This document shows, one piece after another, positions 33,439 through 49,002 of a stretch of 64,000 bases of DNA. Both the position numbers and the translations under genes were made by a program. Below the pieces are notes generated by a model. The model saw only the letters and a list, made by a program, of their open reading frames with translations. It did no database searches and had not been told where the DNA came from. The first letter of the stretch is position 1, and every line of letters starts with the position of its first letter. Source of the stretch: a virus (Duplodnaviria > Heunggongvirae > Uroviricota > Caudoviricetes); the IMG/VR virus record IMGVR_UViG_3300032116_012976; one strand, given 5' to 3'.

Positions 33439-33449
33439 GTGCCTCCTTT

Positions 33450-33683: not shown

Positions 33684-33709
33684 TTTGCACTCCTTTCTGT
33701 TAATGTGTA

Positions 33710-36478: not shown

Positions 36479-36553
36479 TGGCCGGCCCTGAGAGGATCGA
36501 ACTCCCACCGCTTGTTTCGAAGACAAGCATGATATCCATTTCACCAAGGGCCG
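36479..36553 (-). tRNA. tRNA-Arg(TCG)
   Basis: Hand-folded cloverleaf: 7-bp acceptor (cggccct/agggccg on plus), T-arm, anticodon loop CTTCGAA, CCA encoded. Confidence 0.8.
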
Positions 36554-36558
36554 AGAAT

Positions 36559-36632
36559 TGGTGCTCCCAACTGGTAACGATCCAGTGTTTCTACATTACC
36601 AATGTAGTGTAATGCCTTTATACTATGAGAGC
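36559..36632 (-). tRNA. tRNA-Thr(GGT)
   Basis: Acceptor with one G:U, anticodon loop TTGGTAA, atypical T-loop ATCGTTA, CCA encoded. Confidence 0.7.
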
Positions 36633-36636
36633 TAAG

Positions 36637-36710
36637 TGGAGCAGGATACCAGAATCGAACTGGTGACTGGACCTTGGCAAGGTTCTATTTTACCCCTAAA
36701 CTAATCCTGC
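36637..36710 (-). tRNA. tRNA-Gly(GCC)
   Basis: Acceptor gcaggat/atcctgc, anticodon loop TTGCCAA, CCA encoded. Confidence 0.8.
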
Positions 36711-36723
36711 ATTCCGTTACTTA

Positions 36724-37200
36724 TTAGGCAGCTCGTAAACTCTTAAATCTATCTGCCGCGTATGATGCTGCAAATGCTTCTGGCTTCACAAACGGAATCA
36801 CATTGCATGTTCCTTTGATGTAGCCCACAGCTTGCGAGATCACACAACTTGAACCGTATTGTTCGTCTGGGTTGATGTCCAAGTGAACTTCAACTTGACG
36901 GCCTTCTAGTACGTCAGCCAGTTTCAAATACAGTTCTGAAACCTTGTACACTTCGGTCATCAAACGCATGGCAGGTTTGCCTGGTTTCACGTCCCACACA
37001 CGCTCGCGTTGAACTTCGCCAAACAGTTTGCAGCCGTTGTTGCCGTTGATGTGTACCACAATGGCCAACACATAGTCGGCATACCAGGTACCGTCAATTT
37101 TGATTCGTTCAGAGTCGCAGCCAAGGTAGATGCGAGTTTCGGGCGTTTGTTTCTGGATAAATTCTGCTACTGATGCTATATCGAGCTTTTTCATTTTCAA
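36724..37200 (-). CDS. YkuK/DUF458-like predicted RNase H-fold protein
   Basis: IYLGCDSERIKIDGTWYADYVLAIVVHINGNNGCKLF...EVHLDINPDEQYGS recalled as the ykuK-family pattern. From memory only. Confidence 0.45.
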   Translation of the reverse strand: MKMKKLDIASVAEFIQKQTPETRIYLGCDSERIKIDGTWYADYVLAIVVHINGNNGCKLFGEVQRERVWDVKPGKPAMRLMTEVYKVSELYLKLADVLEGRQVEVHLDINPDEQYGSSCVISQAVGYIKGTCNVIPFVKPEAFAASYAADRFKSLRAA

Positions 37201-37223
37201 CTTTCAAAAATATTTATTGATAG

Positions 37224-37300
37224 TGGTACCCCAGGAGGGATTCGAACCCTCAGAATTCTCCTTTTGAGAGAGACACGTATTCCAGTTCCGTCACCGGGGC
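37224..37300 (-). tRNA. tRNA with Leu anticodon CAA but class-I (short variable loop) architecture, 77 nt
   Basis: GCCCCGG TG ACGG AACTGGAAT ACGT G TCTCT CTCAAAA GGAGA ATTCT GAGGG TTCGAAT CCCTC CTGGGGT A CCA. Confidence 0.7.
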
Positions 37301-37306
37301 ATTTGC

Positions 37307-37341
37307 AAAAAAAAAAACAGTAGGACTGGCCTACTGTTTTT
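37307..37341 (-). terminator. rho-independent terminator (bidirectional shape)
   Basis: acagtagg-actgg-cctactgt hairpin flanked by A11 and T5. On the minus strand it is followed by a long T-run. Confidence 0.8.
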
Positions 37342-37371
37342 ATAACTTGTGTCAGACAATCTGATCATGCG

Positions 37372-37671
37372 TTATTCTGTATAATCTTCTACAGTAAATG
37401 ACACAGGAACAACACTAAAAGTTGAAAGTTGTGCAGTCATCCATTCAACAAAGTCTTCTGCATTTTTTTTGTTTTCCCATTTTCGAGTTACAGTTAAATG
37501 GGTGGGACCTAGTTCTGACGGGTCGAGACCTGCGGTACCAACCACAGTAAAGTCATCATGCCCACCGTCTCCAACAATTTGTAAATAATTACTCCAAGGG
37601 ATAATAGTTCTTGCTGTTTCTCGATCTTCTACAGACGCATACACCAACACAGTTTTAGCAACTATAGCCAT
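37372..37671 (-). CDS. hypothetical protein
   Basis: Start moved to MAIVAKTV, preceded by ggagat. Confidence 0.5.
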   Translation of the reverse strand: MAIVAKTVLVYASVEDRETARTIIPWSNYLQIVGDGGHDDFTVVGTAGLDPSELGPTHLTVTRKWENKKNAEDFVEWMTAQLSTFSVVPVSFTVEDYTE

Positions 37672-37690
37672 AATAATCTCCTTTTTGTAT

Positions 37691-38464
37691 TTATTGCTTT
37701 GCGGCAATCACGCTTAAATGCCAACCTAGCTGTTGATTGACAGCCTGGCGTTGTGCATCGCTCATGGCAGCAAACCATGGTTCCAACACATAATTTCCTT
37801 GTTTGTACTGCTCTACATTGTACATAAAACAGTAATCTTGCTTGATGCTTTTGATATCAAAGTGTACGTCCAGCAGTTTTTGTATTTCTCCTTGACTGTA
37901 AACTCTGGCATATGGGCAGTTGTCTTGCGCTTCAAACTGGTCCAGCCCAGACTGAATCATTGCCCATTTCCAACTGTTGCGAGCATACACTAGGAAACGA
38001 AACTCCCCATCAGATGCTAGACTTGCGTAAGCATTGCTGACCACTTGTTCTACATTGGGATAGTGATGCAATACACCACAAGCATACACCATATCAAATT
38101 GTCCTAGCCCTGCAACACGCTGACTGTCGCCTGCGTCCATGTGATAGAATTCAGCATCTAATCCCATAACAGTAAATCTCTGCTCACAAAGTTCTATGCT
38201 ACGACTGCTAAGATCAATCCCAACGTATTCAGCACCATGCCGTACAAATTGTTCAGCATCAGATCCAATGCCGCATCCTAGTTCTAGCACCCGCCGTCCC
38301 TTGCAGTTTTCAAAGTCGGCCAACTGCCACAAATGCGGCCCAACAAACCATCTACGACGATTGATGTTGTTCCAAAATTCTTCTGTGCCTTCTGGTGCCA
38401 ACCCATGCTTTATATTACAAGGTTGTTGATCCCAGTACTGTTCTATTTGAGTAATTGTAGCCAT
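37691..38464 (-). CDS. class I SAM-dependent methyltransferase
   Basis: Motif I VLELGCGIGSD. Post-I VGIDLS. Confidence 0.75.
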   Translation of the reverse strand: MATITQIEQYWDQQPCNIKHGLAPEGTEEFWNNINRRRWFVGPHLWQLADFENCKGRRVLELGCGIGSDAEQFVRHGAEYVGIDLSSRSIELCEQRFTVMGLDAEFYHMDAGDSQRVAGLGQFDMVYACGVLHHYPNVEQVVSNAYASLASDGEFRFLVYARNSWKWAMIQSGLDQFEAQDNCPYARVYSQGEIQKLLDVHFDIKSIKQDYCFMYNVEQYKQGNYVLEPWFAAMSDAQRQAVNQQLGWHLSVIAAKQ

Positions 38465-38502
38465 ACAGTGTATTTAAAAGTCTGTGCAAGCTACATTAAA
38501 TT

Positions 38503-38579
38503 TGGTGCCCCAGAGGAGACTCGAACTCCTAAAATTTGGCTTCTAAGACCAACACGTATACCAATTCCGTCACCGGGGC
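38503..38579 (-). tRNA. tRNA with Leu anticodon TAG but class-I architecture, 77 nt
   Basis: GCCCCGG TG ACGG AATTGGTAT ACGT G TTGGT CTTAGAA GCCAA ATTTT AGGAG TTCGAGT CTCCT CTGGGGC A CCA. Confidence 0.7.
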
Positions 38580-38590
38580 TTAAATACATC

Positions 38591-38794
38591 ATGCAAACCA
38601 AACAAGACTCCATCAAAAAAATAGAGCGTTTGCTTGCAATGGAAACATTGGGCAAAACGTTTGTGACCAAACAACAACAGTTGGCCTACGAGCGCGGATA
38701 TCTAACAGGCTTGCTGGCTGCTATGGCCTACAACGACAATTCAGTCGAGCATGTGGTGAATCAACGCATCAAACATCTTACACCTAAAATCTAA
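38591..38794 (+). CDS. possible 67-aa ORF on the opposite strand within the tRNA array
   Basis: MQTKQDSIKKIERLLAMETLGK... Internal Met of ORF 38333..38794, whose upstream part overlaps a tRNA. No obvious RBS. Confidence 0.3.
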   Translation: MQTKQDSIKKIERLLAMETLGKTFVTKQQQLAYERGYLTGLLAAMAYNDNSVEHVVNQRIKHLTPKI

Positions 38795-38795
38795 C

Positions 38796-38871
<76 letters not shown>

Positions 38872-38876
38872 ATGAA

Positions 38877-38951
38877 TGGTGGGTGATGAGAGGATCGAAC
38901 TCCCGACAAACTGCGTGTAAGGCAGCGACTCTACCGCTGAGCTAATCACCC
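38877..38951 (-). tRNA. tRNA-Val(TAC)
   Basis: Acceptor gggtgat/atcaccc, anticodon loop CTTACAC, CCA encoded. Confidence 0.8.
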
Positions 38952-38956
38952 GTATA

Positions 38957-39047
38957 TGGTGGAAGTGGTGAGATTCGAACTCACGGACCCCTTTCGGAGC
39001 CGGCAGTTTTCAAGACTGCTGCAATCAACCAACTCTGCCACACTTCC
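38957..39047 (-). tRNA. tRNA-Ser(TGA), class II
   Basis: 91 nt, acceptor ggaagtg/cacttcc, anticodon loop CTTGAAA, long variable arm, CCA encoded. Confidence 0.8.
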
Positions 39048-39241
39048 TAAAAAATTAAAAAAGATACTGCTTTGCGTTTAAAGGTACTGAACATCCTTTC
39101 GGGTAGCTCACATCCTTCCTGGCACATGGTTCGACTGTGACTAGCAGTCTGGAACTTAATCCCAGCGGCACCTGGATAACGTTAAGGTCCCTAGCAGTTG
39201 GGCCCATAGTCAATGAGTTTTTCACACATCTTTTCTAAACT
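39048..39241 (-). other. unassigned 194-nt spacer in the tRNA array (possible small RNA)
   Basis: No ORF. Contains the direct repeat ggtactgaacatcc / ggtagctcacatcc and a duplicated ctagcagt. The minus strand ends in a T-rich run before tRNA-Ser. Confidence 0.25.
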
Positions 39242-39317
39242 TGGAGTAGGTGACAGGACTCGAACCTGCATTATACGGATTTGCAATCCGGCGCCTAGCC
39301 ATTCGGCACACACCTAC
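39242..39317 (-). tRNA. tRNA-Cys(GCA)
   Basis: Anticodon loop TTGCAAA, discriminator U73 as expected for Cys, CCA encoded. Confidence 0.8.
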
Positions 39318-39323
39318 ATCTAT

Positions 39324-39400
39324 TGGTCGGAGTACGAGGGTTCGAACCTCGGACCTCCTGGTCCCAAACCAGGCGCACTACCAGGCTGTGCTATACTCCG
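39324..39400 (-). tRNA. tRNA-Pro(TGG)
   Basis: Acceptor cggagta/tactccg, anticodon loop TTTGGGA, CCA encoded. Confidence 0.8.
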
Positions 39401-39406
39401 TGTATT

Positions 39407-39625
39407 TTATTTTACTTTGGGTTCTTGACTTTTGTCAAGTTCATGGGGTTCAGCAAATCTTGTGCCGTGGCCCAGATTCCAACTGTCTGCTGTGAAAATT
39501 TTTACAGGCTTCCAGTAACGACTTATGATGTTGTTGACAGCAACAGCCGCCGCCACAATCACTACAAATCCTATTGCTGTCAAAATACTACCAGCTAAGA
39601 ATACAGCCGCTTGATCCATGTCCAT
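39407..39625 (-). CDS. small membrane protein (72 aa) inside the tRNA array
   Basis: One clear hydrophobic helix AAVFLAGSILTAIGFVVIVAAAVAV. Confidence 0.5.
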   Translation of the reverse strand: MDMDQAAVFLAGSILTAIGFVVIVAAAVAVNNIISRYWKPVKIFTADSWNLGHGTRFAEPHELDKSQEPKVK

Positions 39626-39638
39626 TGTTTGTTCCTTG

Positions 39639-39712
39639 TGGAGCAGGGTAGGGGAATCGAACCCCTCGCTTTAGCTTGGAAGGCTAAGGTATTACCACTA
39701 TACGAACCCTGC
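39639..39712 (-). tRNA. tRNA-Gly(TCC)
   Basis: Acceptor gcagggt/accctgc, anticodon loop CTTCCAA, CCA encoded. Confidence 0.8.
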
Positions 39713-39760
39713 GTTAAAATACTTATTATACAACACTCAGACACTGTTGTAAAGATCATT

Positions 39761-39835
39761 TGGTTGCCATGGACAGTTTCGAAATGTCGACCTATCGCTT
39801 ATCAAGCGATTGCTCTTCCTCTGAGCTACACGGCA
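39761..39835 (-). tRNA. tRNA-Ile(GAT)
   Basis: Anticodon stem atcgc/gcgat, loop TTGATAA, CCA encoded. Confidence 0.75.
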
Positions 39836-39841
39836 AAAACT

Positions 39842-39915
39842 TGGCACGGGTACTAGGGCTCGAACCTAGAATGACAGAGTCAAAGTCTGTAGTGTTACCA
39901 TTACACTATACCCGA
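39842..39915 (-). tRNA. tRNA-Gln(TTG)
   Basis: Anticodon loop CTTTGAC, unpaired U1-U72 and G73 (Gln-like identity features), CCA encoded. Confidence 0.75.
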
Positions 39916-39927
39916 ACAAAAACTATT

Positions 39928-40002
39928 TGGTGGATGTAAGTAGAGTCGAACTACCACTTGACTCCGTATGAAGGAGGCGCACTACCATTATGCTATACAT
40001 CC
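39928..40002 (-). tRNA. tRNA-Met or Ile2 (CAT)
   Basis: GGATGTA...CCTCC TTCATAC GGAGT... Full cloverleaf. Met versus lysidine-Ile cannot be decided by eye. Confidence 0.7.
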
Positions 40003-40006
40003 ATGT

Positions 40007-40098
40007 TGGTACCCCCACCGGGAGTCGAACCCAGATGAACCAATTATCTGTTGCTTACGGGATATAAATCCGCCGTTTTACCATTAAACTATAGGGGC
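40007..40098 (-). tRNA. 92-nt tRNA with a 22-nt variable region; best-fit anticodon TAT (identity undetermined)
   Basis: GCCCCTA TA GTTT AATGGTA AAAC G GCGGA TTTATAT CCCGT AAGCAACAGATAATTGGTTCAT CTGGG TTCGACT CCCGG TGGGGGT A CCA. The A31-C39 pair is a mismatch. Confidence 0.55.
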
Positions 40099-40103
40099 AT
40101 GTC

Positions 40104-40178
40104 TGGGGTGTCGTATGAGAATCGAACTCATGACAGCGGAATCACAACCCGCGGTTTTGCCACTAAACTAACGTCACC
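40104..40178 (-). tRNA. tRNA-His(GTG)
   Basis: Anticodon loop TTGTGAT, C73 and an encoded G-1 (His hallmarks), CCA encoded. Confidence 0.8.
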
Positions 40179-40267
40179 ATATAGGAACACACTCAGGCGT
40201 AGTAGTTCGTTAGCCCACTAAGATACACGGCTACCACCCGTGTCATTAGTTGAATGTGTTTTTATAT
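40179..40267 (-). ncRNA. clamp-stem element filling the His-Lys tRNA spacer (89 nt)
   Basis: Arms atataggaacacactc (40179..40194) and gaatgtgtttttatat (40252..40267) pair around a ~57-nt insert with an internal hairpin acacgg/ccgtgt. Confidence 0.5.
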
Positions 40268-40341
40268 GGTAGGGGCGCCGGGATTCGAACCCGAAATTGG
40301 CAGATTAAAAGTCTGCTGTGATACCGTTTCACCACACCCCC
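40267..40341 (-). tRNA. tRNA-Lys(TTT)
   Basis: Anticodon stem gcaga/tctgc, loop CTTTTAA, CCA encoded. Confidence 0.8.
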
Positions 40342-40402
40342 GGTATCTTGTCACTCTTGTCACTATTCATGACAGACTCTCCTTTTTAAAATAAGTATTT
40401 GA

Positions 40403-41527
40403 ATGAACAAATATTGTCCAAAACCATTTGTTAGTATTCATATGTATACTGATAAAGATCTCAATCCAACTGTTAGGCCTTGTTGCAATTACAAACCTAT
40501 CAAGCAGTACGCAACGATTAATGATTATTTGCAATCATCTGAACTAGCGTCTCTTCAGCAACATTTGCTTACAAAAGAATCATTGCCAGATGGATGCAAG
40601 GCATGCAAAGTAGACGAAGATAATAACTTGCCTAGTATCCGAAACAAGTATATTAAAGTGTTTGAGCATGAAACCAAAACTAAAATTGTTGACTTGGAAA
40701 TTTTCCCTGGCAACGCATGTAATCTCAGTTGCTTGTCGTGCAATCCTTCTCATAGTACCAAATCAGGTCAGGAATATGCCAAACTTGGATGGATTAAACA
40801 ATCAATAGTGATCAATCACGAAGATCATGCACTTGAAGTTATTAAACAGTTGCCAGACCTTAAATCAATAGGTTTTATTGGCGGCGAATTTTTTGTAACC
40901 AAACACAATATTGAATTGCTCGATGCGGTTATTGAAAAAAATCTTAAAACACGAATTATTACCAATGCCACTCAACTAACCAAAAAACATCTTGAGCGGT
41001 TACAAAAAATATCTGACCTTGATGTGATGGTTAGTGTAGACGGTACTGGGCCAACATTTGAATTTTTACGCTATCCGGCACAATGGTCAGTTGTGCAATC
41101 AAACATTGTTGCACTACAACAGGCATTGCCCGGAGCAAAGATACATTTGTCGGCAGTGTTGCAATTTTTAAATTTGCAAAATATCATTGAACTGTTTGAA
41201 TACGCCAATGTCCGTCGACTGCCATTTAATGTGATCCCTTTATCTTATCCTGTTTGGCTACAGTCAGAAGTGCTTACCACTCTCGAACGTCAGCAGTTGA
41301 TTGCAGTTATACAAAAACAACTAACAGTTGCAAAACTTACCAAAACACAAAAACAGTTAATGACTGATACATGTAGTATGCTAGAAACAATACAGCACTC
41401 ACCTGCTCAACGAGAACAGTTTGTGTCTCGAACAAGCCAGCTGATTCGACTGCGCAACATCACACAACACACAATCAACTCAGTGTTTGGTGTGCTAGAA
41501 AATTTAGCGCAAGAAGTTATACAATAG
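40403..41527 (+). CDS. radical SAM enzyme (type B paralog) embedded in the tRNA array
   Basis: YCPKPFVSI...RPCC, CNLSCLSCN, IGGEFFV. Confidence 0.8.
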   Translation: MNKYCPKPFVSIHMYTDKDLNPTVRPCCNYKPIKQYATINDYLQSSELASLQQHLLTKESLPDGCKACKVDEDNNLPSIRNKYIKVFEHETKTKIVDLEIFPGNACNLSCLSCNPSHSTKSGQEYAKLGWIKQSIVINHEDHALEVIKQLPDLKSIGFIGGEFFVTKHNIELLDAVIEKNLKTRIITNATQLTKKHLERLQKISDLDVMVSVDGTGPTFEFLRYPAQWSVVQSNIVALQQALPGAKIHLSAVLQFLNLQNIIELFEYANVRRLPFNVIPLSYPVWLQSEVLTTLERQQLIAVIQKQLTVAKLTKTQKQLMTDTCSMLETIQHSPAQREQFVSRTSQLIRLRNITQHTINSVFGVLENLAQEVIQ

Positions 41528-41567
41528 CCAGGGACCTAACTCGTCAAGGGAGAGTATGGCTATGTGT

Positions 41568-41645
41568 TGGTACCACCTGAGAGATTCGAACTCCCCGCCC
41601 CTGCGTTCGTAGCACAGTGCTCTAATCCAAATGAGCTAAGGTGGT
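41568..41645 (-). tRNA. tRNA-Arg(ACG)
   Basis: Acceptor accacct/aggtggt, anticodon loop CTACGAA, CCA encoded. Confidence 0.75.
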
Positions 41646-41653
41646 GTATTGAA

Positions 41654-41853
41654 TTTGAGAGTAGTAGCATCACTGTTATTGCTACCATTGACCCGTGTAA
41701 TAAAGCCGGCCGGGAGGGTGATACGTCACTTGGAATACTTAACACACAGATTGATTACTTAGTTGTGTACGGAATCACGCCGCCCGTGCTTTACACTAGG
41801 TTGACCTTCGAAGAATCTTCCTAGCGTGTCTTTCTCTTGCTGACACTCTCAAA
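41654..41853 (-). ncRNA. 200-nt clamped spacer element between tRNA-Arg(ACG) and tRNA-Thr(TGT)
   Basis: Arms tttgagagt (41654..41662) and actctcaaa (41845..41853) pair. No ORF. Internal hairpins include gtagca/tgctac and ctagg/cctag. Confidence 0.4.
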
Positions 41854-41856
41854 ACT

Positions 41857-41930
41857 TGGTGCCCCACGACAGAATCGAACTGCCATCACAGGATTACAAA
41901 ACCAGTGTACTACCATTGTACTAGTAGGGC
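41857..41930 (-). tRNA. tRNA-Thr(TGT)
   Basis: GCCCTAC TA GTAC AATGGTA GTAC A CTGGT TTTGTAA TCCTG... Two U-U mismatches in the anticodon stem. CCA encoded. Confidence 0.65.
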
Positions 41931-41936
41931 GAATTG

Positions 41937-42026
41937 TGGTGGAAGACTAGGGAGTCGAACCCTATGACCCTATTACTAGAATCTACAGATTAGCAATCTG
42001 CTGCATTACCGTCCTGCCCGTCTTCC
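41937..42026 (-). tRNA. tRNA-Ser(GCT), class II
   Basis: 90 nt, acceptor ggaagac/gtcttcc, anticodon loop TTGCTAA, CCA encoded. Confidence 0.8.
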
Positions 42027-42031
42027 TGACT

Positions 42032-42107
42032 TGGCTCCCCAGCGTGGGATCGAACCACGGACACCTTGATTAACAGTCAAGTGCAACTACCGCTGTGCTA
42101 CTAGGGA
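42032..42107 (-). tRNA. tRNA-Asn(GTT)
   Basis: Anticodon stem cttga/tcaag, loop CTGTTAA, G73, CCA encoded. Confidence 0.8.
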
Positions 42108-42147
42108 ATAATCTACTTAGTAGGCACTCGAGCCTACTACAAAAATA

Positions 42148-42240
42148 TGGTGGAGCAACTTGGAGTCGAACCAAGAATGTTTACCACGAGGGGACGGATT
42201 TACAGTCCGCCGATGCACACGCCATAGCATCAATTGCTCC
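42148..42240 (-). tRNA. tRNA-Tyr(GTA), class II
   Basis: 93 nt, acceptor ggagcaa/ttgctcc, D stem GATG/CATC, anticodon loop CTGTAAA, 18-nt variable region, CCA encoded. Confidence 0.75.
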
Positions 42241-42245
42241 ATATT

Positions 42246-42320
42246 TGGTGGACCGGCGGGGGATCGAACCCCGACTAAAGGCTTGCAAAGCCCCTGTGCT
42301 CCCATTATCACTACCAGCCC
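42246..42320 (-). tRNA. tRNA-Ala(TGC)
   Basis: Anticodon loop TTTGCAA. The acceptor stem carries the G3:U70 Ala identity pair. CCA encoded. Confidence 0.8.
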
Positions 42321-42326
42321 AAATTT

Positions 42327-42400
42327 TGGCATCCCGGGAGGGACTCGAACCCCCACGAACGGTTTTGGAGACCGTCATGCTGCCATTACACCACCGAGAC
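42327..42400 (-). tRNA. tRNA-Trp(CCA)
   Basis: Anticodon stem acggt/accgt, loop CTCCAAA, G73, CCA encoded. Confidence 0.8.
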
Positions 42401-42408
42401 ATAATTTT

Positions 42409-42431
42409 AACACACTCTTGCGAATGTGTGT
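42409..42431 (-). ncRNA. GCAA-capped hairpin, minimal member of the clamp-stem family, 8 nt 5' of tRNA-Trp
   Basis: Minus strand acacattc-GCAA-gagtgtgt: 8 bp with one G:U. The same position is a C:A mismatch on the plus strand. Confidence 0.6.
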
Positions 42432-42432
42432 A

Positions 42433-42482
42433 TTAAAACATTCTAAACTACTTAGGCTGCCTGTTTGTAAAGAATGTTTTAA
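42433..42482 (-). ncRNA. 12-bp perfect clamp hairpin with 26-nt loop
   Basis: ttaaaacattct (42433..42444) pairs with agaatgttttaa (42471..42482). Confidence 0.5.
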
Positions 42483-42582
42483 TACGCTCGGATTTTTTTA
42501 TGTACAAGAACATAAGCCATCCCCGAGGCCGCCCATTTGTAGTTTAGAGTGATACAGGCTCGCGTTGCCGTTGCACTAAATG

Positions 42583-42610
42583 AAAAAACCCAGGGTTTTT
42601 ACGCCTGGGT
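42583..42610 (-). terminator. rho-independent terminator inside the ORF-free block
   Basis: acccagg...cctgggt hairpin followed, on the minus strand, by TTTTTT. Confidence 0.65.
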
Positions 42611-42818
42611 CCTTGGGTAAGATACGGTTGTATACTACTTAGGACCCTCTGCCTCCTGGAATGCTATTCATGCGACCATAGGCGTGTGACCAAACTGGTG
42701 TCTGGGCAAACTTGGGTAGCAGTGAACAATATTGTGTTTTCATCATAAGTCCTATTGTACAGTATTTACCTTTTGAGGTCAACCACTGTGTTAAAGTTAT
42801 TTAGCCTTTCGGCTGAAT

Positions 42819-42893
42819 TGGTTGCGGGGGAAGGAATCGAACCTCCGTCTCCCAGGTTATGAGCCTGGTGGTCTACCGCTGACGTACCCCGCG
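42819..42893 (-). tRNA. initiator tRNA-fMet(CAT)
   Basis: C1-A72 mismatch at the acceptor end (bacterial initiator hallmark), anticodon loop CTCATAA with a G-C-rich stem base, CCA encoded. Confidence 0.75.
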
Positions 42894-42904
42894 ATTGAAT
42901 TATT

Positions 42905-42986
42905 TATATAGAAACACACTCTATGCTTGGGGAACAATTCATTGAATTGAGCAACCACCAACGGGTACGGAGTGCGTTTGTATATA
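42905..42986 (-). ncRNA. clamp-stem element 11 nt 5' of tRNA-fMet (82 nt)
   Basis: Arms tatatagaaacacactc (42905..42921) and gagtgcgtttgtatata (42970..42986), 15 of 17 positions paired. Confidence 0.5.
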
Positions 42987-42993
42987 AAGTGGC

Positions 42994-44010
42994 GGACTGA
43001 GAATACATCCTAACCCAGTAACACCTCGGACATTATTACAAACCTTGCGAGTCTGCTTTCTTCCGATTTCCACTGCAACCATATTGCTATGTATCACAGT
43101 CTGTTACCAGTATCGCCGTTTTTAAAGACAGGCAGTAGTCTTGTCATCACATGCTACTCTACACCATCTATCCCGTTGACCTTTAGAGCCATTCACTGTC
43201 GCTAAACAGTTACGAAACTTCCAGTATAAACAGATTTCACCTTGCGAGTTACGTCTGACTGTATTGCCTTGCGGCTACAGCATTAGATACTTTTCACACA
43301 TGACCGAGTCAGTCTTTGCTTTTATGTTAGATAGTGGTTTTGAAGCCACAGCCTATTCCTTAACAGGGAATTGCTCTACGATGAGCTATATCAACCTACT
43401 GCGATGTGCTGACTCAGTTGCTTCATACTCTTTTGGAATACAAAATACAACACACCACGTTCCTTTTGTCTTGCGAACTACTCAGACGTCTTTTGCGATC
43501 AGTGTCGGGTCTCGGCTTTCGCGTACCTCCACCAACCACTCAAACTGCATACGAGCCCTTGGGTGCAACCCCTCGGACCGATACGCTACCCTTTCTCATA
43601 CCAATTAACTGGGCTGGTTTTGTATAGAAGTCAGCACCACCTGTTACTTTTCTGCAACTCCGGTTACCCTTGCGGGCCGGTAAGTTACAGCTCTTTCCTA
43701 TACTCCCAGCGTCATTGTTACAACCACCGGTCTTATCAGTGATCGGATCCTCACGGACCTGAGCAGGCTTGTTTACATGAACCATTGCTGGCGGACTTAT
43801 GTAGGCATACATCCTTTGGCTGGGTCACCCCAGTTATTCTTCGTACAGCTGGGCGAACCATACTGCACAGGACAATAAACTGCCCTATGTATCTATTGTA
43901 AGACAAACGTCTTTTGTTGTCAAACAGTTTTGGATAAATTTGTTGTTTATCTATCCAAAATAGTCTGTAACAGTTTTCTGCAGTCGTGTTACAGTGGGCA
44001 AATAAGTACC
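42994..44010 (-). ncRNA. candidate large structured ncRNA (~1 kb), class unknown (GOLLD/ROOL-like context)
   Basis: No credible ORF in an otherwise gene-dense window. Five CGCAAG (GCAA tetraloop) and two GTGA-capped hairpins on the minus strand, plus many local stems. Flanked by tRNAs. Confidence 0.4.
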
Positions 44011-44014
44011 CCAC

Positions 44015-44986
44015 ATGATCACTGAAATCTTAACCTATCACCACAGTCTCGACTGGAACATTGAACAATTCGTTGATAGCACATGTCTAGCAAACATTGT
44101 TCAGCCACACTGGCCAATGGTAACTTCTTCCAAAGGAGGATTGATACCAACAAATAAACCCAGCCGAGACTTTTTTGAGCTCAATAAAAAACGAGGACGT
44201 CCTACTGAACTTAGGAACAGTACCATTGACGCCTTGGTCAGTCTTGTGGCAACAAAATTGCATCTCAACGGATTTGTTACGAATGTGGTAGCAGAATGCA
44301 GTGGAAGCATGCATGCCTTGTACACTGCATCCATGGTGAGCTTGCAACACCAATTACCAGTGATTGTTTTTTGTGCTGATAATTTAGTTGATGACGAACT
44401 TCACATGTGGCGATTTGCCAGTATGGGTGCATTGGATCAATCCTCAGGAAGAGCATTTGACTCAACCAGTACTGGATTTCGAATGGGTAGAGGCATGGCT
44501 GCAATGTTGATAAAACATCCAAGTGTAAAATTCAACATGAGTGCATTTGCCACAATCAGCAATTATATCTTTCGTACCAACCCCACACTCATAGCCAATC
44601 CAGGTGATGCGCACCAATTGGCCAGAGATATTTCTGGCATCAATTTTGACACCATTGATTTTTGGAATGCACATGCAACAGGCACTCCAGTGGGAGATCA
44701 ATTTGAGTACAATGTTTTTAATTCTTTAGTTCACAAAGACATACCTATTGTCAGCTACAAAAGCCGCATAGGGCACTGTATCTCAGCCAGCGGCGCCATT
44801 GAAATGTGCATGAGTTTTGACGATTACCGTGCAAAAACCCTAAGACCCAATGTGTTAGCTGGTGATCTCATAGTCAAAGATTCAAGGATCATCGTAGATG
44901 CTGTGCCGTTTCCGGGCAAACGCATACTCAAGGCCAATTTTGGATTTGGCGGCAAAAACAGTTTTTGCCAAATTGACATTGAATAG
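44015..44986 (+). CDS. beta-ketoacyl-ACP synthase I/II-like (short, 323 aa)
   Basis: Cys-His-His triad context: AECSGSMHALY, NAHATGTPVGD, KSRIGHCISASGAIE. C-terminal FGFGGKNS. N-terminal region is shorter than FabB/FabF. No obvious RBS. Confidence 0.75.
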   Translation: MITEILTYHHSLDWNIEQFVDSTCLANIVQPHWPMVTSSKGGLIPTNKPSRDFFELNKKRGRPTELRNSTIDALVSLVATKLHLNGFVTNVVAECSGSMHALYTASMVSLQHQLPVIVFCADNLVDDELHMWRFASMGALDQSSGRAFDSTSTGFRMGRGMAAMLIKHPSVKFNMSAFATISNYIFRTNPTLIANPGDAHQLARDISGINFDTIDFWNAHATGTPVGDQFEYNVFNSLVHKDIPIVSYKSRIGHCISASGAIEMCMSFDDYRAKTLRPNVLAGDLIVKDSRIIVDAVPFPGKRILKANFGFGGKNSFCQIDIE

Positions 44987-44990
44987 ATTC

Positions 44991-45140
44991 TATAGTCAAG
45001 CACCGAGAGATGCTCAATTTATGCGTCCTCCGCTAAGAGTGCAATAGCCGATAGCAGTTATATTAGGATCCGTTCCCGGCCGGTTGGACCCGAATAGCGT
45101 AAGCGTCCTTACACGATACCTTTATCGGTGCTTGACTATA
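44991..45140. ncRNA. 150-nt element closed by a perfect 16-bp clamp, directly after the KAS stop codon
   Basis: tatagtcaagcaccga (44991..45006) pairs with tcggtgcttgactata (45125..45140). The interior has gc-GTAA-gc, ccggccgg and gcg/cgc stems. Confidence 0.45.
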
Positions 45141-45173
45141 AAAACTAAAAGTTCGGATTTGAAAATCAAATCC
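45141..45173 (-). terminator. possible terminator of the upstream minus-strand RNA
   Basis: ggatttga-aaa-tcaaatcc hairpin (45155..45173) followed, on the minus strand, by T-rich gaacTTTTagTTTTTat. Confidence 0.45.
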
Positions 45174-45590
45174 TCCCACTGCTAACTACTGCTTCCCAAT
45201 TTATCGTCCATCGGCACCCGTGGTAGGGCTTGCGATGCTCATCGGCCCTGAGTTCTGGCTCAGGTGATCCTTGGGATAGGACTGCTGGGCCTTGTCCTGC
45301 CCAGCATCAGGAAAATTAGTTGCTCTGCATCCCCCGGCGGTAATTGTAGTGCATCATCTCTTGGGTTGCCCCGCAATTCTCACACACCTTCCACCCGCTT
45401 CCCGACAGGGACCGCTATCGTGTTGCTAACGGCCTTTCGGTAAGAAGACTACCACCCTTGAGAGTCACCTCACTTCTTATCCTGCGGGTCACAGTATCCG
45501 CTAACCAAGCGGAACGTCGGGGAGAAGCCACGGTTGCAGGACCTAGTGCTCTTGCGAGGAAGTGTCCAGGCGATGTGGCTTCAAACTTGA
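45174..45590 (-). ncRNA. candidate structured ncRNA (~420 nt), class unknown
   Basis: ORF-free. Hairpins cctgag/ctcagg, tgctggg/cccagca, agggc/gccct, tccgc/gcgga. Two more CGCAAG on the minus strand (plus CTTGCG at 45229 and 45551). Confidence 0.35.
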
Positions 45591-45679
45591 GGCATCATGT
45601 GGGATTCGAACCCACGCAAGAAAACCTTGATGATCATTCAAGGTTGAAGCAAACCACACTCCGTTACATCCTATGACGC
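45591..45679 (-). ncRNA. tRNA-like element A (89 nt; canonical acceptor and T arm, non-canonical core, no CCA)
   Basis: GCGTCAT...GTGGG TTCGAAT CCCAC ATGATGC C. The core is an 8-bp hairpin with loop ATGATCA. No D-arm could be folded. Confidence 0.4.
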
Positions 45680-45687
45680 CATAAACT

Positions 45688-45778
45688 TGGTGGACAACAA
45701 TGGGAATCTAACCCACTTCTTCCTCGTATGCTATTACGAAGTTTCATACCAGCCTCAGGTAATTGACACATCATGTCC
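45688..45778 (-). ncRNA. tRNA-like element B (91 nt; degenerate)
   Basis: T-arm GTGGG TTAGATT CCCAT, 5-bp acceptor, CCA encoded. No canonical anticodon arm (7-bp stem CTTCGTA/TACGAGG with a 6-nt loop). Confidence 0.35.
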
Positions 45779-45785
45779 ATAAACT

Positions 45786-45860
45786 TGGCGGTCCCAGGGG
45801 GTAACGATCCCCCTCCTCAGCAGTGACAGTGCTGTGTGCGTCCATGAACACCTTGAGACC
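45786..45860 (-). tRNA. tRNA-Asp(GTC)
   Basis: GGTCTCA AG GTGT TCATGGAC GCAC A CAGCA CTGTCAC TGCTG AGGA GGGGG ATCGTTA CCCCC TGGGACC G CCA. Confidence 0.75.
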
Positions 45861-46063
45861 AAATTAGGATAAGCTACTGGGTTCCACGCCAGCCCTTAAT
45901 TGAGCAGTTACTCTGTCCATCTCATTTATTCAAAGTCTGTGTGCAGTGAGATTCTGCCTATCAGAGTCTGTAAGGGTAGTCTCCATCCTTACGCTTACGG
46001 TCTTCTGCCACCGGATCTCTATCGCTAATCAAACGCTACTTTAACGAAAGTAGTAACGGGATT

Positions 46064-46138
46064 TGGTAGAGCGTAGGGGAATCGAACCCCTCTTACAGGC
46101 GTGAAAGGCTTGTGTCCTAACCGATAGACGAACGCTCC
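46064..46138 (-). tRNA. tRNA-Glu(TTC)
   Basis: G1:U72, T-arm agggg/cccct, anticodon loop CTTTCAC, CCA encoded. Confidence 0.8.
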
Positions 46139-46147
46139 ATAGTTCAC

Positions 46148-46376
46148 TATATGAAAACACATTAGGGAAGTTCTTGACACGCATCACCAACTTGCATCAA
46201 GACCTCATTACAGGCCCAGTAGTTCCGCCGCCTTCCTGGAGTTTGGTGTAGCCTTATCCCTCACGCTCGATGGTGTCTCGCGCTACTCTTAGGCCCTCCT
46301 GCTTCATGGGTATCCGGCTCGAATCAGCCTTTGTTCACCCCTAACGGACTAGGTAACCCTAATGTGTTTACATATA
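46148..46376 (-). ncRNA. clamp-stem element 9 nt 5' of tRNA-Glu (229 nt)
   Basis: Arms tatatgaaaacacattaggg (46148..46167) and ccctaatgtgtttacatata (46357..46376), 19 of 20 paired, enclosing ~190 nt without an ORF. Confidence 0.5.
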
Positions 46377-46473
46377 GTGCCCAGAACTTAATCTGGGGCA
46401 CTATACAAAATTAAATTTTTAACGAACTTCAAAGTAGTTTCGATCAACTGCCTTTGTTTTCTAACTAGTCTCT

Positions 46474-46502
46474 AGTATAGCATCTCCTGCTTTACTGGTC
46501 AA
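46474..46502 (-). promoter_or_regulatory. sigma70-type promoter TTGACC-N17-TATACT (TGn) reading into the tRNA/ncRNA array
   Basis: Minus strand: ttgaccagtaaagcaggagatgcTATACT. Confidence 0.6.
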
Positions 46503-46571
46503 CTTGTTTTGTAAATGCCCCGCCTTGTTGCAGGGTCTTTACAAACTTCGCTGTTTTTCTAACTTGTGTCT

Positions 46572-46600
46572 AGTATAGCACCAATCCAATTATTGGTCTA
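46572..46600 (-). promoter_or_regulatory. tandem second copy of the promoter (TAGACC-N17-TATACT)
   Basis: Minus strand: tagaccaataattggattggtgcTATACT. About 98 nt upstream of the first copy, with shared flank ttttctaact.gt.tctagtatagca. Confidence 0.45.
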
Positions 46601-46607
46601 CTGCCAT

Positions 46608-46637
46608 AAAAAAACCCGCCTACTTGGCGGGTTTTTT
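46608..46637 (-). terminator. rho-independent terminator after the porin gene (bidirectional shape)
   Basis: acccgcc-tactt-ggcgggt flanked by an A-run and a T-run. Confidence 0.85.
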
Positions 46638-46656
46638 GGTTTGTACTACTTCTGTT

Positions 46657-47547
46657 TTAGAACTGTACGACCAACCCGCCTGCTACTTGTTTGACATCAG
46701 TGGCTGCTGAGGTTCCCTCAACTGTACGATACAAAACTTGTGCATAGGTCTTTTTGCTGAAAGCATACTCAGCACCTACGTTGTAACTCTTGATGCCATT
46801 TTCAATGCGACCATAGCTGGCCTTCACTGTGACTGGTCCACCAAGTTTGTGTGCCACGCCGACCAACTGAGCACGGTTGGTGTTGGCAGCAACGCCTTTG
46901 TTGTCGCTTGCGCTGGCAAACACAGTGGTTGCACCAAATTTAGCACGAGCAGCCAACACGTCACTGGTTTCTGCGCCAGCTTCGTAACGAGCATAAGTCA
47001 ACACAGCAGGTCCAACTGCGGCAATCACGGATGCGGCATAAGGATCAGCGGCAGTGCCAACAGCACCAGTGCTACGATCAAAGTTAGCAGAGACATTGCC
47101 AAAGTTCACAGAAGTGAAAGCGGCATTGCTCAAACGCAAACCACGCAGGTTATGCACGTCGGCAGCTGAGCTACCAATCAATGTGCCAAATGGATCATTG
47201 TCGCTGATGGCCAAGAAGTGAGTGTGAACATTGCGACCAAGATCAACGCTACCCATTTTGTGAGCAATACCCACGGTGCTTTGGCGATCGCCAAGTCTAG
47301 TGTCAGTACCAGTGTCTGGGCTGTTGGCTTGGATGCCGGTCTCGTATGTGGCACGAGCTGTTAATCCGCCACCTAAGTTTTCAGTAGCACGAATGCCAAA
47401 GTGACTCAAGTCATTGGCCATGCCTTGCACGGTGGAAGCACCAGTTTTGGTGTTGTCAAGGTAAGTGCCAACACGACCATAGATACCAACTTGTGCGCTT
47501 GCAACACCAGCAACTGCCAGGGTCAACGCAATTAGAACTTTCTTCAT
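46657..47547 (-). CDS. outer-membrane porin (Gram-negative trimeric porin family)
   Basis: Signal peptide MKKVLIALTLAVAGVASAQV, alternating beta-strand pattern, C-terminal ...GGLVVQF with terminal Phe. RBS aaggaaa. Confidence 0.8.
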   Translation of the reverse strand: MKKVLIALTLAVAGVASAQVGIYGRVGTYLDNTKTGASTVQGMANDLSHFGIRATENLGGGLTARATYETGIQANSPDTGTDTRLGDRQSTVGIAHKMGSVDLGRNVHTHFLAISDNDPFGTLIGSSAADVHNLRGLRLSNAAFTSVNFGNVSANFDRSTGAVGTAADPYAASVIAAVGPAVLTYARYEAGAETSDVLAARAKFGATTVFASASDNKGVAANTNRAQLVGVAHKLGGPVTVKASYGRIENGIKSYNVGAEYAFSKKTYAQVLYRTVEGTSAATDVKQVAGGLVVQF

Positions 47548-47595
47548 AAGTAATTTTTCCTTGTTAATGAAATGATCAAATGTCGATCATAGAGT

Positions 47596-47625
47596 ATTAT
47601 ATAGCACAAACACTGAGAATGTCAA
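47596..47625 (-). promoter_or_regulatory. sigma70-type promoter TTGACA-N18-TATAAT for the porin gene
   Basis: Minus strand: ttgacattctcagtgtttgtgctaTATAAT. Confidence 0.55.
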
Positions 47626-47651
47626 AGAAAATGGCTACTTTCGCAGCCATT
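47622..47651 (-). terminator. terminator at the end of the tmRNA coding piece
   Basis: aatggct-gcgaaagt-agccatt hairpin followed, on the minus strand, by ttttcttt. Confidence 0.65.
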
Positions 47652-47813
47652 TTGGTGGTTTCTGTTACGAGGTATTTCCTACCCTAGACGACCTTAAGCG
47701 GCCATCAAGAATTTTTCATCATTTGCAGATAAAAGTTTTGCTTGATTTACGGTCATCGCCTACCGTGCTGTCCACTCTGTTACTCTTTGCCCTGTCGAAT
47801 CTAGGTCAGGCCC
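47630..47813 (-). ncRNA. ssrA: tmRNA coding piece (two-piece / permuted ssrA)
   Basis: Starts GGGCCTGACCTAGATTCGAC (compare the standard GGGGCUGAUUCUGGAUUCGAC). Contains the tag frame. The 3' boundary is approximate. Confidence 0.8.
47694..47726 (-). other. ssrA: tmRNA tag reading frame ANDEKFLMAA*
   Basis: GCA AAT GAT GAA AAA TTC TTG ATG GCC GCT TAA. The ANDE...AA pattern is typical of proteobacterial tags. Confidence 0.8.
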
Positions 47814-48028
47814 ATCATAAAGAAACTTAATCTACGCTTAATGTTGTTAACAACAAGCATAATATTGGAAAAACAATTAATAAAAATTTTGCTAAATTTT
47901 CCATATTACCATAACTCACAGTTTTTTATTTTCTCTTCGTCCAATGTGGTATCACGTGTAAAATAAAATACACCAAACACTAACCAAAATAACAAAAATA
48001 AAACATAACCTATCATTAAACTTCCTTA

Positions 48029-48093
48029 TGGTGGACCTGGGGGGATTCGCACCCCCGTCCAGAACACTTTTCTCTCGGCTTCATACAGCAATA
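48029..48093 (-). ncRNA. ssrA: tmRNA acceptor piece (T-arm + 3' acceptor strand + ACCA)
   Basis: ...GGAC GGGGG TGCGAAT CCCCC CAGGTCC A CCA. Pairs with GGGCCTG of the coding piece, giving G3:U70. The 5' boundary is inferred from the promoter. Confidence 0.75.
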
Positions 48094-48099
48094 ACTCGC

Positions 48100-48128
48100 A
48101 GTATATATTTATTCTTTGGGCTTGTCAA
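48100..48128 (-). promoter_or_regulatory. sigma70-type promoter TTGACA-N17-TATACT for the tmRNA precursor
   Basis: Minus strand: ttgacaagcccaaagaataaataTATACT. Confidence 0.6.
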
Positions 48129-48278
48129 CTGCTTTGGAGATGATGTCATACACTTGTGCGTATGCATCAGTAATTTTGTCTAGTTGTTGTTCCGACACCA
48201 AGTCTGTGTCCTCCAGACTGACCAAGTCTCGGGCTAGATTTTCTTGTAGTTTTTTTATGGGATTGAGCACATACCTAT

Positions 48279-48812: not shown

Positions 48813-48818
48813 AATGTT

Positions 48819-48904
48819 TGGTACCAGAGACGGGACTCGAACCCGTATGCCCTTGCAAGCGGCAGATTTTAAGTCTGCTGTGTATACCATTCCACCACTC
48901 TGGC
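48819..48904 (-). tRNA. tRNA-Leu(TAA), canonical class II
   Basis: 86 nt: GCCAGAG TG GTGG AATGGTATA...GCAGA CTTAAAA TCTGC + 15-nt variable arm + ACGGG TTCGAGT CCCGT CTCTGGT A CCA. Confidence 0.8.
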
Positions 48905-48922
48905 TTTGCGTTATTTAATACA

Positions 48923-48997
48923 TGGTCCGGCGTAGAGGAATCGAACCTCTATAATGACTTTAGAAGAATCATGTCCTATCCGTTGAACGAACGCCAG
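48923..48997 (-). tRNA. tRNA-Arg(TCT)
   Basis: CTGGCGT TC GTTC AACGGATA GGAC A TGATT CTTCTAA AGTCA TTAT AGAGG TTCGATT CCTCT ACGCCGG A CCA. Confidence 0.8.
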
Positions 48998-49002
48998 ATG
49001 TT

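Follow-up and report, generated by a model that had tools for sequence, protein, structure and literature searches.

Short-variable-loop tRNA-Leu genes in the tRNA array of an uncultivated large phage

Almost all prokaryotic leucine (Leu) tRNAs are of type II (class II), with a long variable arm, and prokaryotic type I tRNA-Leu, with a short variable loop, is exceptional (PMC6614811). In textbooks, as in that study, type I tRNA-Leu is treated as a rarity confined to mitochondria and Streptomyces. Two genes in a 64,000-nucleotide (nt) stretch of DNA from an uncultivated large phage (IMG/VR record IMGVR_UViG_3300032116_012976; GC content approximately 45%), hereafter the window, combine the Leu anticodons CAA and UAG with such a short loop and raise the question of which amino acid they carry. 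The first-pass annotation had offered two readings, namely, Leu acceptors that lost the extra arm, or tRNAs charged with something else that would recode CUA and UUG. The former was supported by our analysis and the latter was not. Both genes are probably functional Leu isoacceptors of a type I lineage widespread in phages and mobile arrays; as judged from sequence, they would be charged by the host's leucyl-tRNA synthetase (LeuRS) and would have lost the arm of a class II ancestor. Both can be annotated as tRNA-Leu, and no change of the genetic code need be invoked.

Structure and probable leucine identity of the two short tRNAs

Both genes were called by ARAGORN as 77-nt tRNAs with the anticodon at position 35 (Table 1). 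From the 5' end, tRNA-Leu(CAA) was parsed as GCCCCGG UG ACG G AACUGGAAU A CGU G UCUCU CUCAAAA GGAGA AUUCU GAGGG UUCGAAU CCCUC CUGGGGU A CCA, and tRNA-Leu(UAG) as GCCCCGG UG ACG G AAUUGGUAU A CGU G UUGGU CUUAGAA GCCAA AUUUU AGGAG UUCGAGU CUCCU CUGGGGC A CCA. Each consists of a 7-base-pair (bp) acceptor stem, a 3-bp D stem, and 5-bp anticodon and T stems, and the Leu anticodon stands in a 7-nt loop with U33 (CUCAAAA in the CAA gene and CUUAGAA in the UAG gene). The variable loop comprises 5 nt (AUUCU and AUUUU, respectively) and is not the stemmed arm of >10 nt that marks class II. A73 and an encoded CCA are found in both genes. Rfam model RF00005, with a gathering score of 29, gave 53.2 bits for the CAA gene (E ~3e-9) and 59.6 bits for the UAG gene (E ~5e-11), and the cloverleaf was the minimum-free-energy fold of each. 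The z-scores of the single-sequence folds were weak (-0.6 and -0.9), which is usual for single tRNAs and uninformative. The earlier description of these genes (77 nt, 5-nt variable loops, A73, CCA, and a shared acceptor and D region) was accurate in every detail according to ARAGORN, sequence, and fold, and the 86-nt class II tRNA-Leu(UAA) reported from the same array was confirmed by ARAGORN. In addition, both short genes lie on the minus strand, and two protein genes stand between them within 37224-38579.

The identity set of E. coli LeuRS comprises A73, A14, A15-U48, the G18G19 register, and A20a (PMC9976931; PMC6614811). All of these elements are present in both short genes. The D arm has the geometry of E. 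coli leuX (strain MG1655), with differences at 5 of 19 positions, two of which form a compensatory 10-25 pair. PMC9976931 further states that neither the anticodon nor the long variable arm is required by E. coli LeuRS and that variants without the variable and anticodon arms stay active.

Isotype hidden Markov models were built from approximately 4,600 tRNAs of the phage and bacterial loci fetched in this work, with the anticodons masked and the window genes excluded; as a control, 25 of 28 window tRNAs recovered their own isotype. tRNA-Leu(CAA) scored 67.7 bits with the model of short tRNA-Leu (LeuShort), 32.8 with that of class II tRNA-Leu (LeuLong), and 29.8 with the valine model, while tRNA-Leu(UAG) scored 62.4 with LeuShort, 33.7 with LeuLong, and 22.8 with the aspartate model. 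The win of LeuShort is trivial, but LeuLong was the best non-self model for both genes despite the penalty for the missing arm, and also for 112 of 150 family members. The class II tRNA-Leu(UAA) of the window, which served as an internal comparison, scored best with LeuLong (63.2) and then with LeuShort (29.5). Moreover, the D-arm motif differed from class II Leu by a median of 7 mismatches and from every other isotype by 10-11. The possibility that the genes arose from a different class I isotype through a shifted anticodon was rejected on the masked scores and D-arm distances. Isotype scoring, which had been proposed as a check, thus agrees with the armless Leu acceptor in that ARAGORN calls Leu and the masked body scores as class II Leu outside its own family; the D-arm geometry, the LeuRS identity elements, and the arms kept by serine (Ser) and tyrosine (Tyr) tRNAs, described below, support the same reading.

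The meaning of the codons was examined by comparing the window open reading frames (ORFs) with related loci by tblastn and reading the codons on both sides in 161 ORF-locus pairs. Leu codons account for 8.3% of all codons in 41 window ORFs; UUG is the commonest of them (32%), and CUA makes up 13%. Among 1265 aligned pairs with UUG in the window, another Leu codon was found in 48% and the same codon in 17%, the remainder being mostly isoleucine, phenylalanine, methionine, and valine. For CUA (230 pairs), the values were 47% and 8%, with mostly isoleucine, phenylalanine, valine, and methionine in the remainder. The other four Leu codons (195-464 pairs each) aligned with another Leu codon in 30-43% and with the same codon in 8-20%, and otherwise mostly with isoleucine, valine, methionine, and phenylalanine. 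The same picture was obtained against 58 carbamoyltransferase protein homologues (<80% identical). By these alignments, UUG and CUA mean Leu in this phage, and therefore a tRNA inserting another residue would mistranslate. The suggested recoding of CUA and UUG is unsupported, as both codons interchange with other Leu codons and the two genes carry no non-cognate identity marks.

Distribution and conservation of the family

When each 77-nt gene was searched against 50,697 phage records by blastn, 98 and 72 records were matched, and the best matches were end to end, ungapped, and annotated as tRNA-Leu, the ungapped homologues measuring 74-78 nt. ARAGORN found short tRNA-Leu genes (76-78 nt; anticodon CAG, UAG, UAA, or CAA) in nine fetched phages of unrelated lineages, namely, Xanthomonas phage X1, Rhodococcus phage Francesca, Cronobacter phage GAP31 (Vequintavirinae), VpaE1 (Felixounavirus), Cronobacter phage S13 (Straboviridae), and the Demerecviridae members Providencia phage PR1, Vibrio phage Thalassa, Aeromonas phage TS3, and Escherichia phage TrudiRoth/Bas30. 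Further Vequintavirinae, i.e., Escherichia phage 4MG, Salmonella phage PVP-SE1, and Klebsiella phage KB57, also have an annotated short tRNA-Leu. The genes of cultured phages share with the window genes the length, the short variable loop, a D arm of the UGACGGAAUUGGUAUACGU type, U48, and A73, and align to them ungapped, with 75-86% identity; of those compared, only the Rhodococcus phage gene lacks an encoded CCA. They differ by compensatory changes in the acceptor, anticodon, and T stems, and none of these phages is a close relative of the present one. The rarity implied by the first-pass annotation was overstated: many cultured phages already have genes of this architecture annotated as tRNA-Leu. 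The window genes join a known kind, with a characterized bacterial precedent. In the open-access literature, no paper on an armless phage tRNA-Leu architecture was found, the only related one being Fan et al. 2019; this is weak evidence of absence, and the family-level pattern seems under-described.

The family was also collected by two pattern scans. A DNA pattern that specified the D arm, the T loop, the anticodon NAR, and a variable loop of 5 nt but left the anticodon stem free matched contigs of IMG/VR (at least 119) and of bacterial genomes (at least 120), while the exact 5' half of the window genes matched at least 117 IMG/VR contigs. Taken together, the two scans place short tRNA-Leu, mostly within tRNA arrays, on at least 190 contigs from IMG/VR and at least 116 from bacteria. 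The bacterial matches listed were mostly from filamentous cyanobacteria (often on plasmids), Variovorax, and metagenome-assembled genomes of Clostridia/Lachnospiraceae. Most matches lay in dense arrays, the median number of tRNAs being 16 for the viral loci and 10 for the 8-kb bacterial loci. The window genes have all the features of the family as delimited in this work, namely, approximately 77 nt, a 5-nt variable loop ending in U48, a D arm of the UGACGGAAYUGGNAUACGU type, A73, the usual encoded CCA, and a Leu anticodon, and both align ungapped with 78 other family representatives.

All 249 pattern genes called by ARAGORN in IMG/VR and bacterial contigs carried Leu anticodons, although the pattern also permitted the phenylalanine anticodons GAA and AAA; four pattern-matching stretches that ARAGORN did not call are outside this count. 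All six Leu anticodons, and no others, occur among the short Leu genes of the loci. Since the patterns preset some D-arm bases, conservation was re-measured on family members matching neither pattern. A73 was found in 155 of 155 and U48 in 151 of 155 (97%) of these, and in 174 such members the values were 98% for A14, 99% for A15, 99% for G18, 98% for G19, and 98% for A20a.

Covariation was assessed on 80 representatives that were <88% identical to each other. The cloverleaf with the 5-nt loop had 98.4% of cells paired, and 19 of its 20 pairs showed double changes. The covariation score was 0.929, compared with 0.225 for shuffled alignments (none of 500 reached 0.929) and at most 0.19 for slid registers. 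Because the stems covary so strongly across the family, the short tRNA-Leu genes are, on this comparative evidence, maintained folded tRNAs and not decaying copies. An alternative fold with a different anticodon, which had been named as a possible refutation of the Leu assignment, was likewise unsupported, as the family-wide covariation fixes this cloverleaf.

The nearest relative of tRNA-Leu(CAA) was 92% identical and came from an IMG/VR locus (L116). tRNA-Leu(UAG) was 100% identical to genes in 51 other IMG/VR contigs (e.g., L294, L300, L305, L306, L310, L315, L316, and L321); the 5' 27 nt of this identity were preset by the search pattern, and the other 50 nt were free. The tRNAs neighboring the identical genes differ, and the flanks are mostly unalignable, only 15 of 946 pairs sharing at least 500 nt. 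Such identity in many contexts implies either very strong constraint or recent horizontal spread of single tRNA genes between arrays. When searched by BLAST in 5,426 E. coli genomes, the UAG gene gave no match at E<=1, the database being too large for a 77-nt query.

Some GenBank records tag family members as 'tRNA-Pseudo' or 'tRNA-OTHER' (MK318083, Aeromonas phage Akh-2; KR014248; MF370225; MN994503). Presumably, these labels stem from isotype models that penalize the missing arm, and they are a trap for annotation pipelines. As a separate observation, a tRNA-His(GUG) at L001 389-465 adjoins the short tRNA-Leu of Xanthomonas phage X1 and has a Leu-like D arm, UGUCGGAAUUGGUAGACGA, which may reflect recombination or duplication between neighboring array tRNAs.

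Proposed loss of the variable arm and alternative explanations

In the loci studied, the arm is missing selectively from Leu tRNAs. Short and long genes numbered 291:118 for Leu in the viral loci and 264:31 in the bacterial loci, as opposed to 1:191 and 0:100 for Ser and 5:82 and 2:46 for Tyr; the Leu counts are inflated because the loci were collected via these tRNAs, while the Ser and Tyr counts are not. By anticodon, the viral Leu genes were distributed as 173:13 for UAG, 72:9 for CAA, and 34:86 for UAA, and the layout of the window (short UAG and CAA, long UAA) was the commonest in viral loci. These numbers suggest that type I is the common form of tRNA-Leu in the studied phage tRNA arrays and bacterial long arrays. 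Within the Demerecviridae, the tRNA-Leu(UAG) beside tRNA-Ala measures 85 nt in T5 and 77 nt in TrudiRoth, and the 77-nt gene of PR1 is identical to the T5 gene at 54 of 77 positions outside the arm. Therefore, arm length changed between related phages. In the simplest view, the Leu arm is dispensable for LeuRS, unlike the arms needed by seryl- and tyrosyl-tRNA synthetases (SerRS and TyrRS), and can be deleted in compact, fast-evolving arrays. Neutral loss of this kind needs no additional assumption to account for the difference between Leu and Ser/Tyr, and the retention of Ser and Tyr arms beside the loss of Leu arms amounts to a natural experiment that agrees with 30 years of identity biochemistry.

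The proposed course of events is as follows. A class II tRNA-Leu ancestor would have lost the hairpin of the variable arm, a direction (loss rather than gain) that we infer. The resulting short tRNAs would keep A73 as discriminator, A14, a Levitt pair formed by A15 and U48, and the D/T elbow, together with a Leu-type D loop that contains G18G19 and A20a. Because the bacterial LeuRS elements defined in E. coli are all kept, the LeuRS of the host would be expected to charge them with leucine. During infection, the CAA tRNA would then supply the decoding of UUG, the commonest Leu codon of the phage, and the UAG tRNA that of the CUN box.

Several points weigh against this scheme. The charging, expression, and modification of the short tRNAs, as of their phage homologues, are deduced from the genes. 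A transcript of the natural type I tRNA-Leu(CAA) of S. coelicolor was not leucylated by E. coli LeuRS; its recognition needs a specialized LSD region of the Streptomyces LeuRS, and the dual recognition of both tRNA types was described by Fan et al. 2019 as a special property of that enzyme (PMC6614811). Therefore, acceptance of type I tRNA-Leu by bacterial LeuRS in general cannot be assumed. The anticodon loop of the window tRNA-Leu(UAG) has A37 rather than the G37 of CUN-reading Leu tRNAs, which is the methylation target of TrmD; A37 precludes the methylated G37 (m1G37) usual for CUN readers and is atypical for a housekeeping Leu tRNA. The same base was found in 166 of 209 distinct short CUN-reading Leu genes; in the window gene, it may point to a UAA-type ancestor or to reading-frame maintenance being controlled differently. 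Furthermore, the margin of LeuLong over the next isotype was small for the CAA gene (32.8 vs 29.8 bits), and the family statistics were drawn from loci that had been collected by means of the short tRNAs themselves, with some D-arm positions preset by the patterns. On the other side, short Leu genes are conserved, with full covariation, in coliphages and in phages of Salmonella and Vibrio, which would be hard to explain if host LeuRS ignored them. There is thus a contradiction between the reported rejection of one natural type I tRNA-Leu by E. coli LeuRS and the conservation of such genes by coliphages.

Among the alternatives, the one that survives best also assumes charging with Leu and regards the arm loss as adaptive. 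Armless tRNA-Leu would escape host nucleases, toxins, or other tRNA-inactivating enzymes that target the class II variable arm, and Leu decoding would continue while host tRNA-Leu is under attack; Leu would be the sole class II isotype able to escape in this way, since bacterial LeuRS, unlike SerRS and TyrRS, needs no arm. We regard this as speculation and as unlikely. Nucleases directed at variable arms do exist, as Retron-Eco7 and Septu cleave that of tRNA-Tyr, with T5 tRNA-Tyr resisting via its distinctive variable loop (PMC13096335), and VapC52 cuts the variable loop of tRNA-Ser (PMC13273310), but no defence system targeting the tRNA-Leu variable arm was found in the open-access literature. 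Short Leu dominates the studied phage and array loci, in contrast to the almost exclusively type II prokaryotic tRNA-Leu of the literature (PMC6614811), and one identical short gene is spread across unrelated phage contexts; however, the prevalence figures are biased by the locus collection, the retention of Ser and Tyr arms is explained equally well by synthetase requirements alone, and most tRNA-Leu(UAA) genes of these phages have the long form (86 long vs 34 short). A bacterial Schlafen nuclease was rejected as further support for evasion, as it cleaves anticodon arms and has no class II specificity (PMC13056530). If arm loss were a true anti-defence trait, E. coli LeuRS would have to charge natural type I phage tRNAs despite the failure with the Streptomyces tRNA, and the phage short tRNAs would offer a natural means of working out the minimal set of elements that LeuRS recognizes.

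According to a second alternative, the short genes are decaying pseudo-tRNAs, or decoys or sponges (e.g., for host tRNA nucleases or LeuRS), and are not productively aminoacylated. The failure of E. coli LeuRS on a natural type I tRNA-Leu (PMC6614811), the missing G37 of the UAG gene, and the labels given to homologues by some annotators (Aeromonas phage Akh-2, AYO145A, and ST11) are consistent with this view. Nevertheless, it is improbable, because compensatory covariation is strong in every stem and U33, A35, the T loop, A73, and CCA are almost invariant, which is the pattern to be expected from translating tRNAs. A pure decoy would not need a conserved set of Leu anticodons, no gene but the UAG gene decodes CUN in the complete minimal set, and an identical 77-nt copy persists in 51 different phage contexts. 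Moreover, 23 of 26 tRNAs of the long array of Anabaena PCC 7120 are aminoacylated in vivo (PMC8421152), a report that gives no Leu detail and is not linked to the short-Leu family.

The weakest alternative, a sense-codon recoding in which another synthetase charges the short tRNAs and CUA and/or UUG would stand for an amino acid other than Leu, can be set aside as very improbable, since the sites of both codons are exchanged with other Leu codons and with isoleucine, phenylalanine, methionine, and valine just as those of the remaining Leu codons are, and only approximately 4.5% Leu would be left in phage proteins without UUG and CUA. It owes its appeal to an architecture atypical for the isotype, as was the case when known reassigning tRNAs were first noticed (review PMC7609411), to a Leu charging that is itself putative, and to A73, which is common to several synthetase identity sets. 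The marks of other synthetases are absent, though. The 3-70 pair of the window genes is C-G, and none of the 80 representatives has G-U there, so that alanine identity is lacking; there is no long arm of the SerRS type, the anticodon loop has 7 nt, and C73 for histidine is missing. The synthetases that use A73 (those for valine, isoleucine, methionine, phenylalanine, lysine, arginine, proline, threonine, and tyrosine) also need their own anticodon bases. These bases are absent from the window genes, whose bodies score as Leu with the anticodon masked, whose family carries only the six Leu anticodons, and of which the UAG tRNA alone decodes CUN in an otherwise complete minimal set. Recoding of this kind is the mode of action of yeast mitochondrial tRNA-Thr(UAG) and Ashbya mitochondrial tRNA-Ala(UAG), and these two, as well as allo-tRNAs and nematode nev-tRNAs, likewise have an architecture unexpected for their anticodon. 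Those codon-reassigning or mis-shaped tRNAs, however, carry another synthetase's marks, whether G3:U70, an anticodon loop of 8 nt, or a long arm of the Ser/Leu type, and the window genes have none.

The tRNA array and comparison with known systems

Table 1. Coordinates of the short tRNA-Leu genes and of other features in the window.
Feature	Position	Strand	Evidence
Type I (short variable loop) tRNA-Leu(CAA), reads UUG	37224..37300	-	ARAGORN; Rfam; sequence; cloverleaf minimum-free-energy fold
Type I tRNA-Leu(UAG)	38503..38579	-	ARAGORN; Rfam; sequence
tRNA array: 30 tRNA genes, permuted tmRNA, GOLLD RNA, interspersed protein genes	36479..49077	-	ARAGORN, Rfam
Canonical class II tRNA-Leu(UAA), 86 nt, variable-arm hairpin	48819..48904	-	ARAGORN; Rfam 59 bits; fold
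Terminator-like hairpin (12-bp stem, 5-nt loop, T-run)	37313..37341	-	Consensus scan only
111-aa ORF	37372-37707	-	ORF list
S-adenosylmethionine (SAM)-dependent methyltransferase	37691-38464	-	Pfam Methyltransf_12/25/11, E 1e-17
tRNA-Ile(UAU), 92 nt	40007-40098	-
tRNA-Tyr(GUA), 93 nt	42148-42240	-
GOLLD RNA (RF02032) inside the tRNA array	42994-43458	-	Rfam, 204 bits
tRNA-like element embedded in GOLLD RNA	43325-43395		50.6 bits
Permuted (two-piece type) tmRNA, tag peptide ANDEKFLMAA	47603-48121	-	ARAGORN; Rfam tmRNA_permuted 115 bits, alpha_tmRNA 57 bits
Host-like auxiliary genes among the tRNAs	46657-47547 (-), 49536-50300 (-), 44015-44986 (+), 31787-34608 (-)		Pfam

The array is a minimal complete decoding set according to ARAGORN, each codon box having one decoder, mostly with U34. 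It holds three CAU genes and both tRNA-Ile(GAU) and tRNA-Ile(UAU), and the short tRNA-Leu(UAG) is its sole decoder of the CUN box. The terminator-like hairpin ends 12 nt upstream of tRNA-Leu(CAA) and closes the upstream two-gene unit. The methyltransferase and the 111-aa ORF separate the two short tRNAs (37372..38464) and are context only, with no evidence tying them to the tRNAs; a pattern scan of IMG/VR viral contigs gave no relative of this methyltransferase. The closest syntenic loci (L010 and L105) share approximately 75% nucleotide identity with the window.

The auxiliary genes encode a Gram-negative porin (Porin_4, E 3e-25), a fatty-acid desaturase, a ketoacyl-synthase fragment, and two TauD-family dioxygenases, and the window also has radical SAM/SPASM, carbamoyltransferase, asparagine synthase, and SPFH genes. 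Clues to the host are limited to the porin gene and the permuted tmRNA, and the porin gene points to a host that would be Gram-negative. By its MoxR ATPase, the nearest cultured phage is the Pseudomonas jumbo phage PA5oct (50% amino-acid identity). No aminoacyl-tRNA synthetase was matched among the 20 window ORFs scanned against Pfam.

Two other tRNAs of the array are unusual in shape. tRNA-Tyr(GUA) has its anticodon at position 38, retains the variable arm, and has an unusually long D arm (a 5-bp stem and a 10-nt loop in the minimum-free-energy fold). tRNA-Ile(UAU) has a variable region of approximately 22 nt, i.e., a long arm on a normally class I isotype, and a length of 90-99 nt was found for 50 of the 58 Ile(UAU) genes from the phage and array loci. 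The extra arm is a short hairpin with the 7-nt loop (C/U)A-GAU-(A/U/G)(A/G); its form is AGCAA-CAGAUAA-UUGGU in the window and most commonly AGCGC-CAGAUUA-GCGUU in the loci. GAU, the major tRNA-Ile anticodon, occupies loop positions 3-5, so that the arm resembles a mimic of an anticodon arm in which A replaces U33. The arm could conceivably aid Ile recognition or modification without TilS. Of the Ile codons in the window, 27% are AUA; the sites of this codon are aligned with Leu in 21% of cases vs 8-9% for AUU and AUC sites, an excess that may simply reflect codon neighborhood in the genetic code.

Compared with the canonical class II tRNA-Leu, represented by E. coli leuX and the tRNA-Leu(UAA) of the window, the short genes have in common the Leu anticodons, A73, A14, A15-U48, the G18G19 register, A20a, a D stem of 3 bp in which 13-22 is mismatched, and the T loop. 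They differ from it in having a 5-nt variable loop instead of a hairpin of at least 13 nt and, in the UAG gene, A37 instead of the G37 normal for CUN readers. The tRNA-Leu(UAG) of T5 (85 nt) is an instructive neighbor, as it stands beside tRNA-Ala like the TrudiRoth gene and has a Leu-type D arm and A73, while keeping a reduced variable region of 13 nt. It is functional, since it became an amber suppressor after replacement of the anticodon, according to its GenBank record.

The closest characterized precedent is the natural type I tRNA-Leu(CAA) of S. coelicolor, which has a 5-nt loop, is leucylated, and is apparently essential, as deletion attempts failed (Fan et al. 2019, PMC6614811). Similar to the window genes, it coexists with class II Leu isoacceptors, here with a single LeuRS, and the length of its loop, rather than the sequence, matters (PMC6614811). 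Unlike them, it is a chromosomal housekeeping gene, and its recognition is reportedly independent of A73 and dependent on the LSD region. The phage short tRNAs keep the E. coli-type identity set, including the A73 that the Streptomyces system reportedly does not use; the two are likened here by description. The mitochondrial type I tRNA-Leu species (UUR and CUN), likewise compared by description only, share the short variable loop and the identity elements A73 and A14, and differ in being organellar, structurally relaxed, and served by a dedicated mitochondrial LeuRS. Precedents for the charging of type I tRNA-Leu are mixed, in that ScoLeuRS and human mitochondrial LeuRS accept one and E. coli LeuRS rejects that of Streptomyces (PMC6614811).

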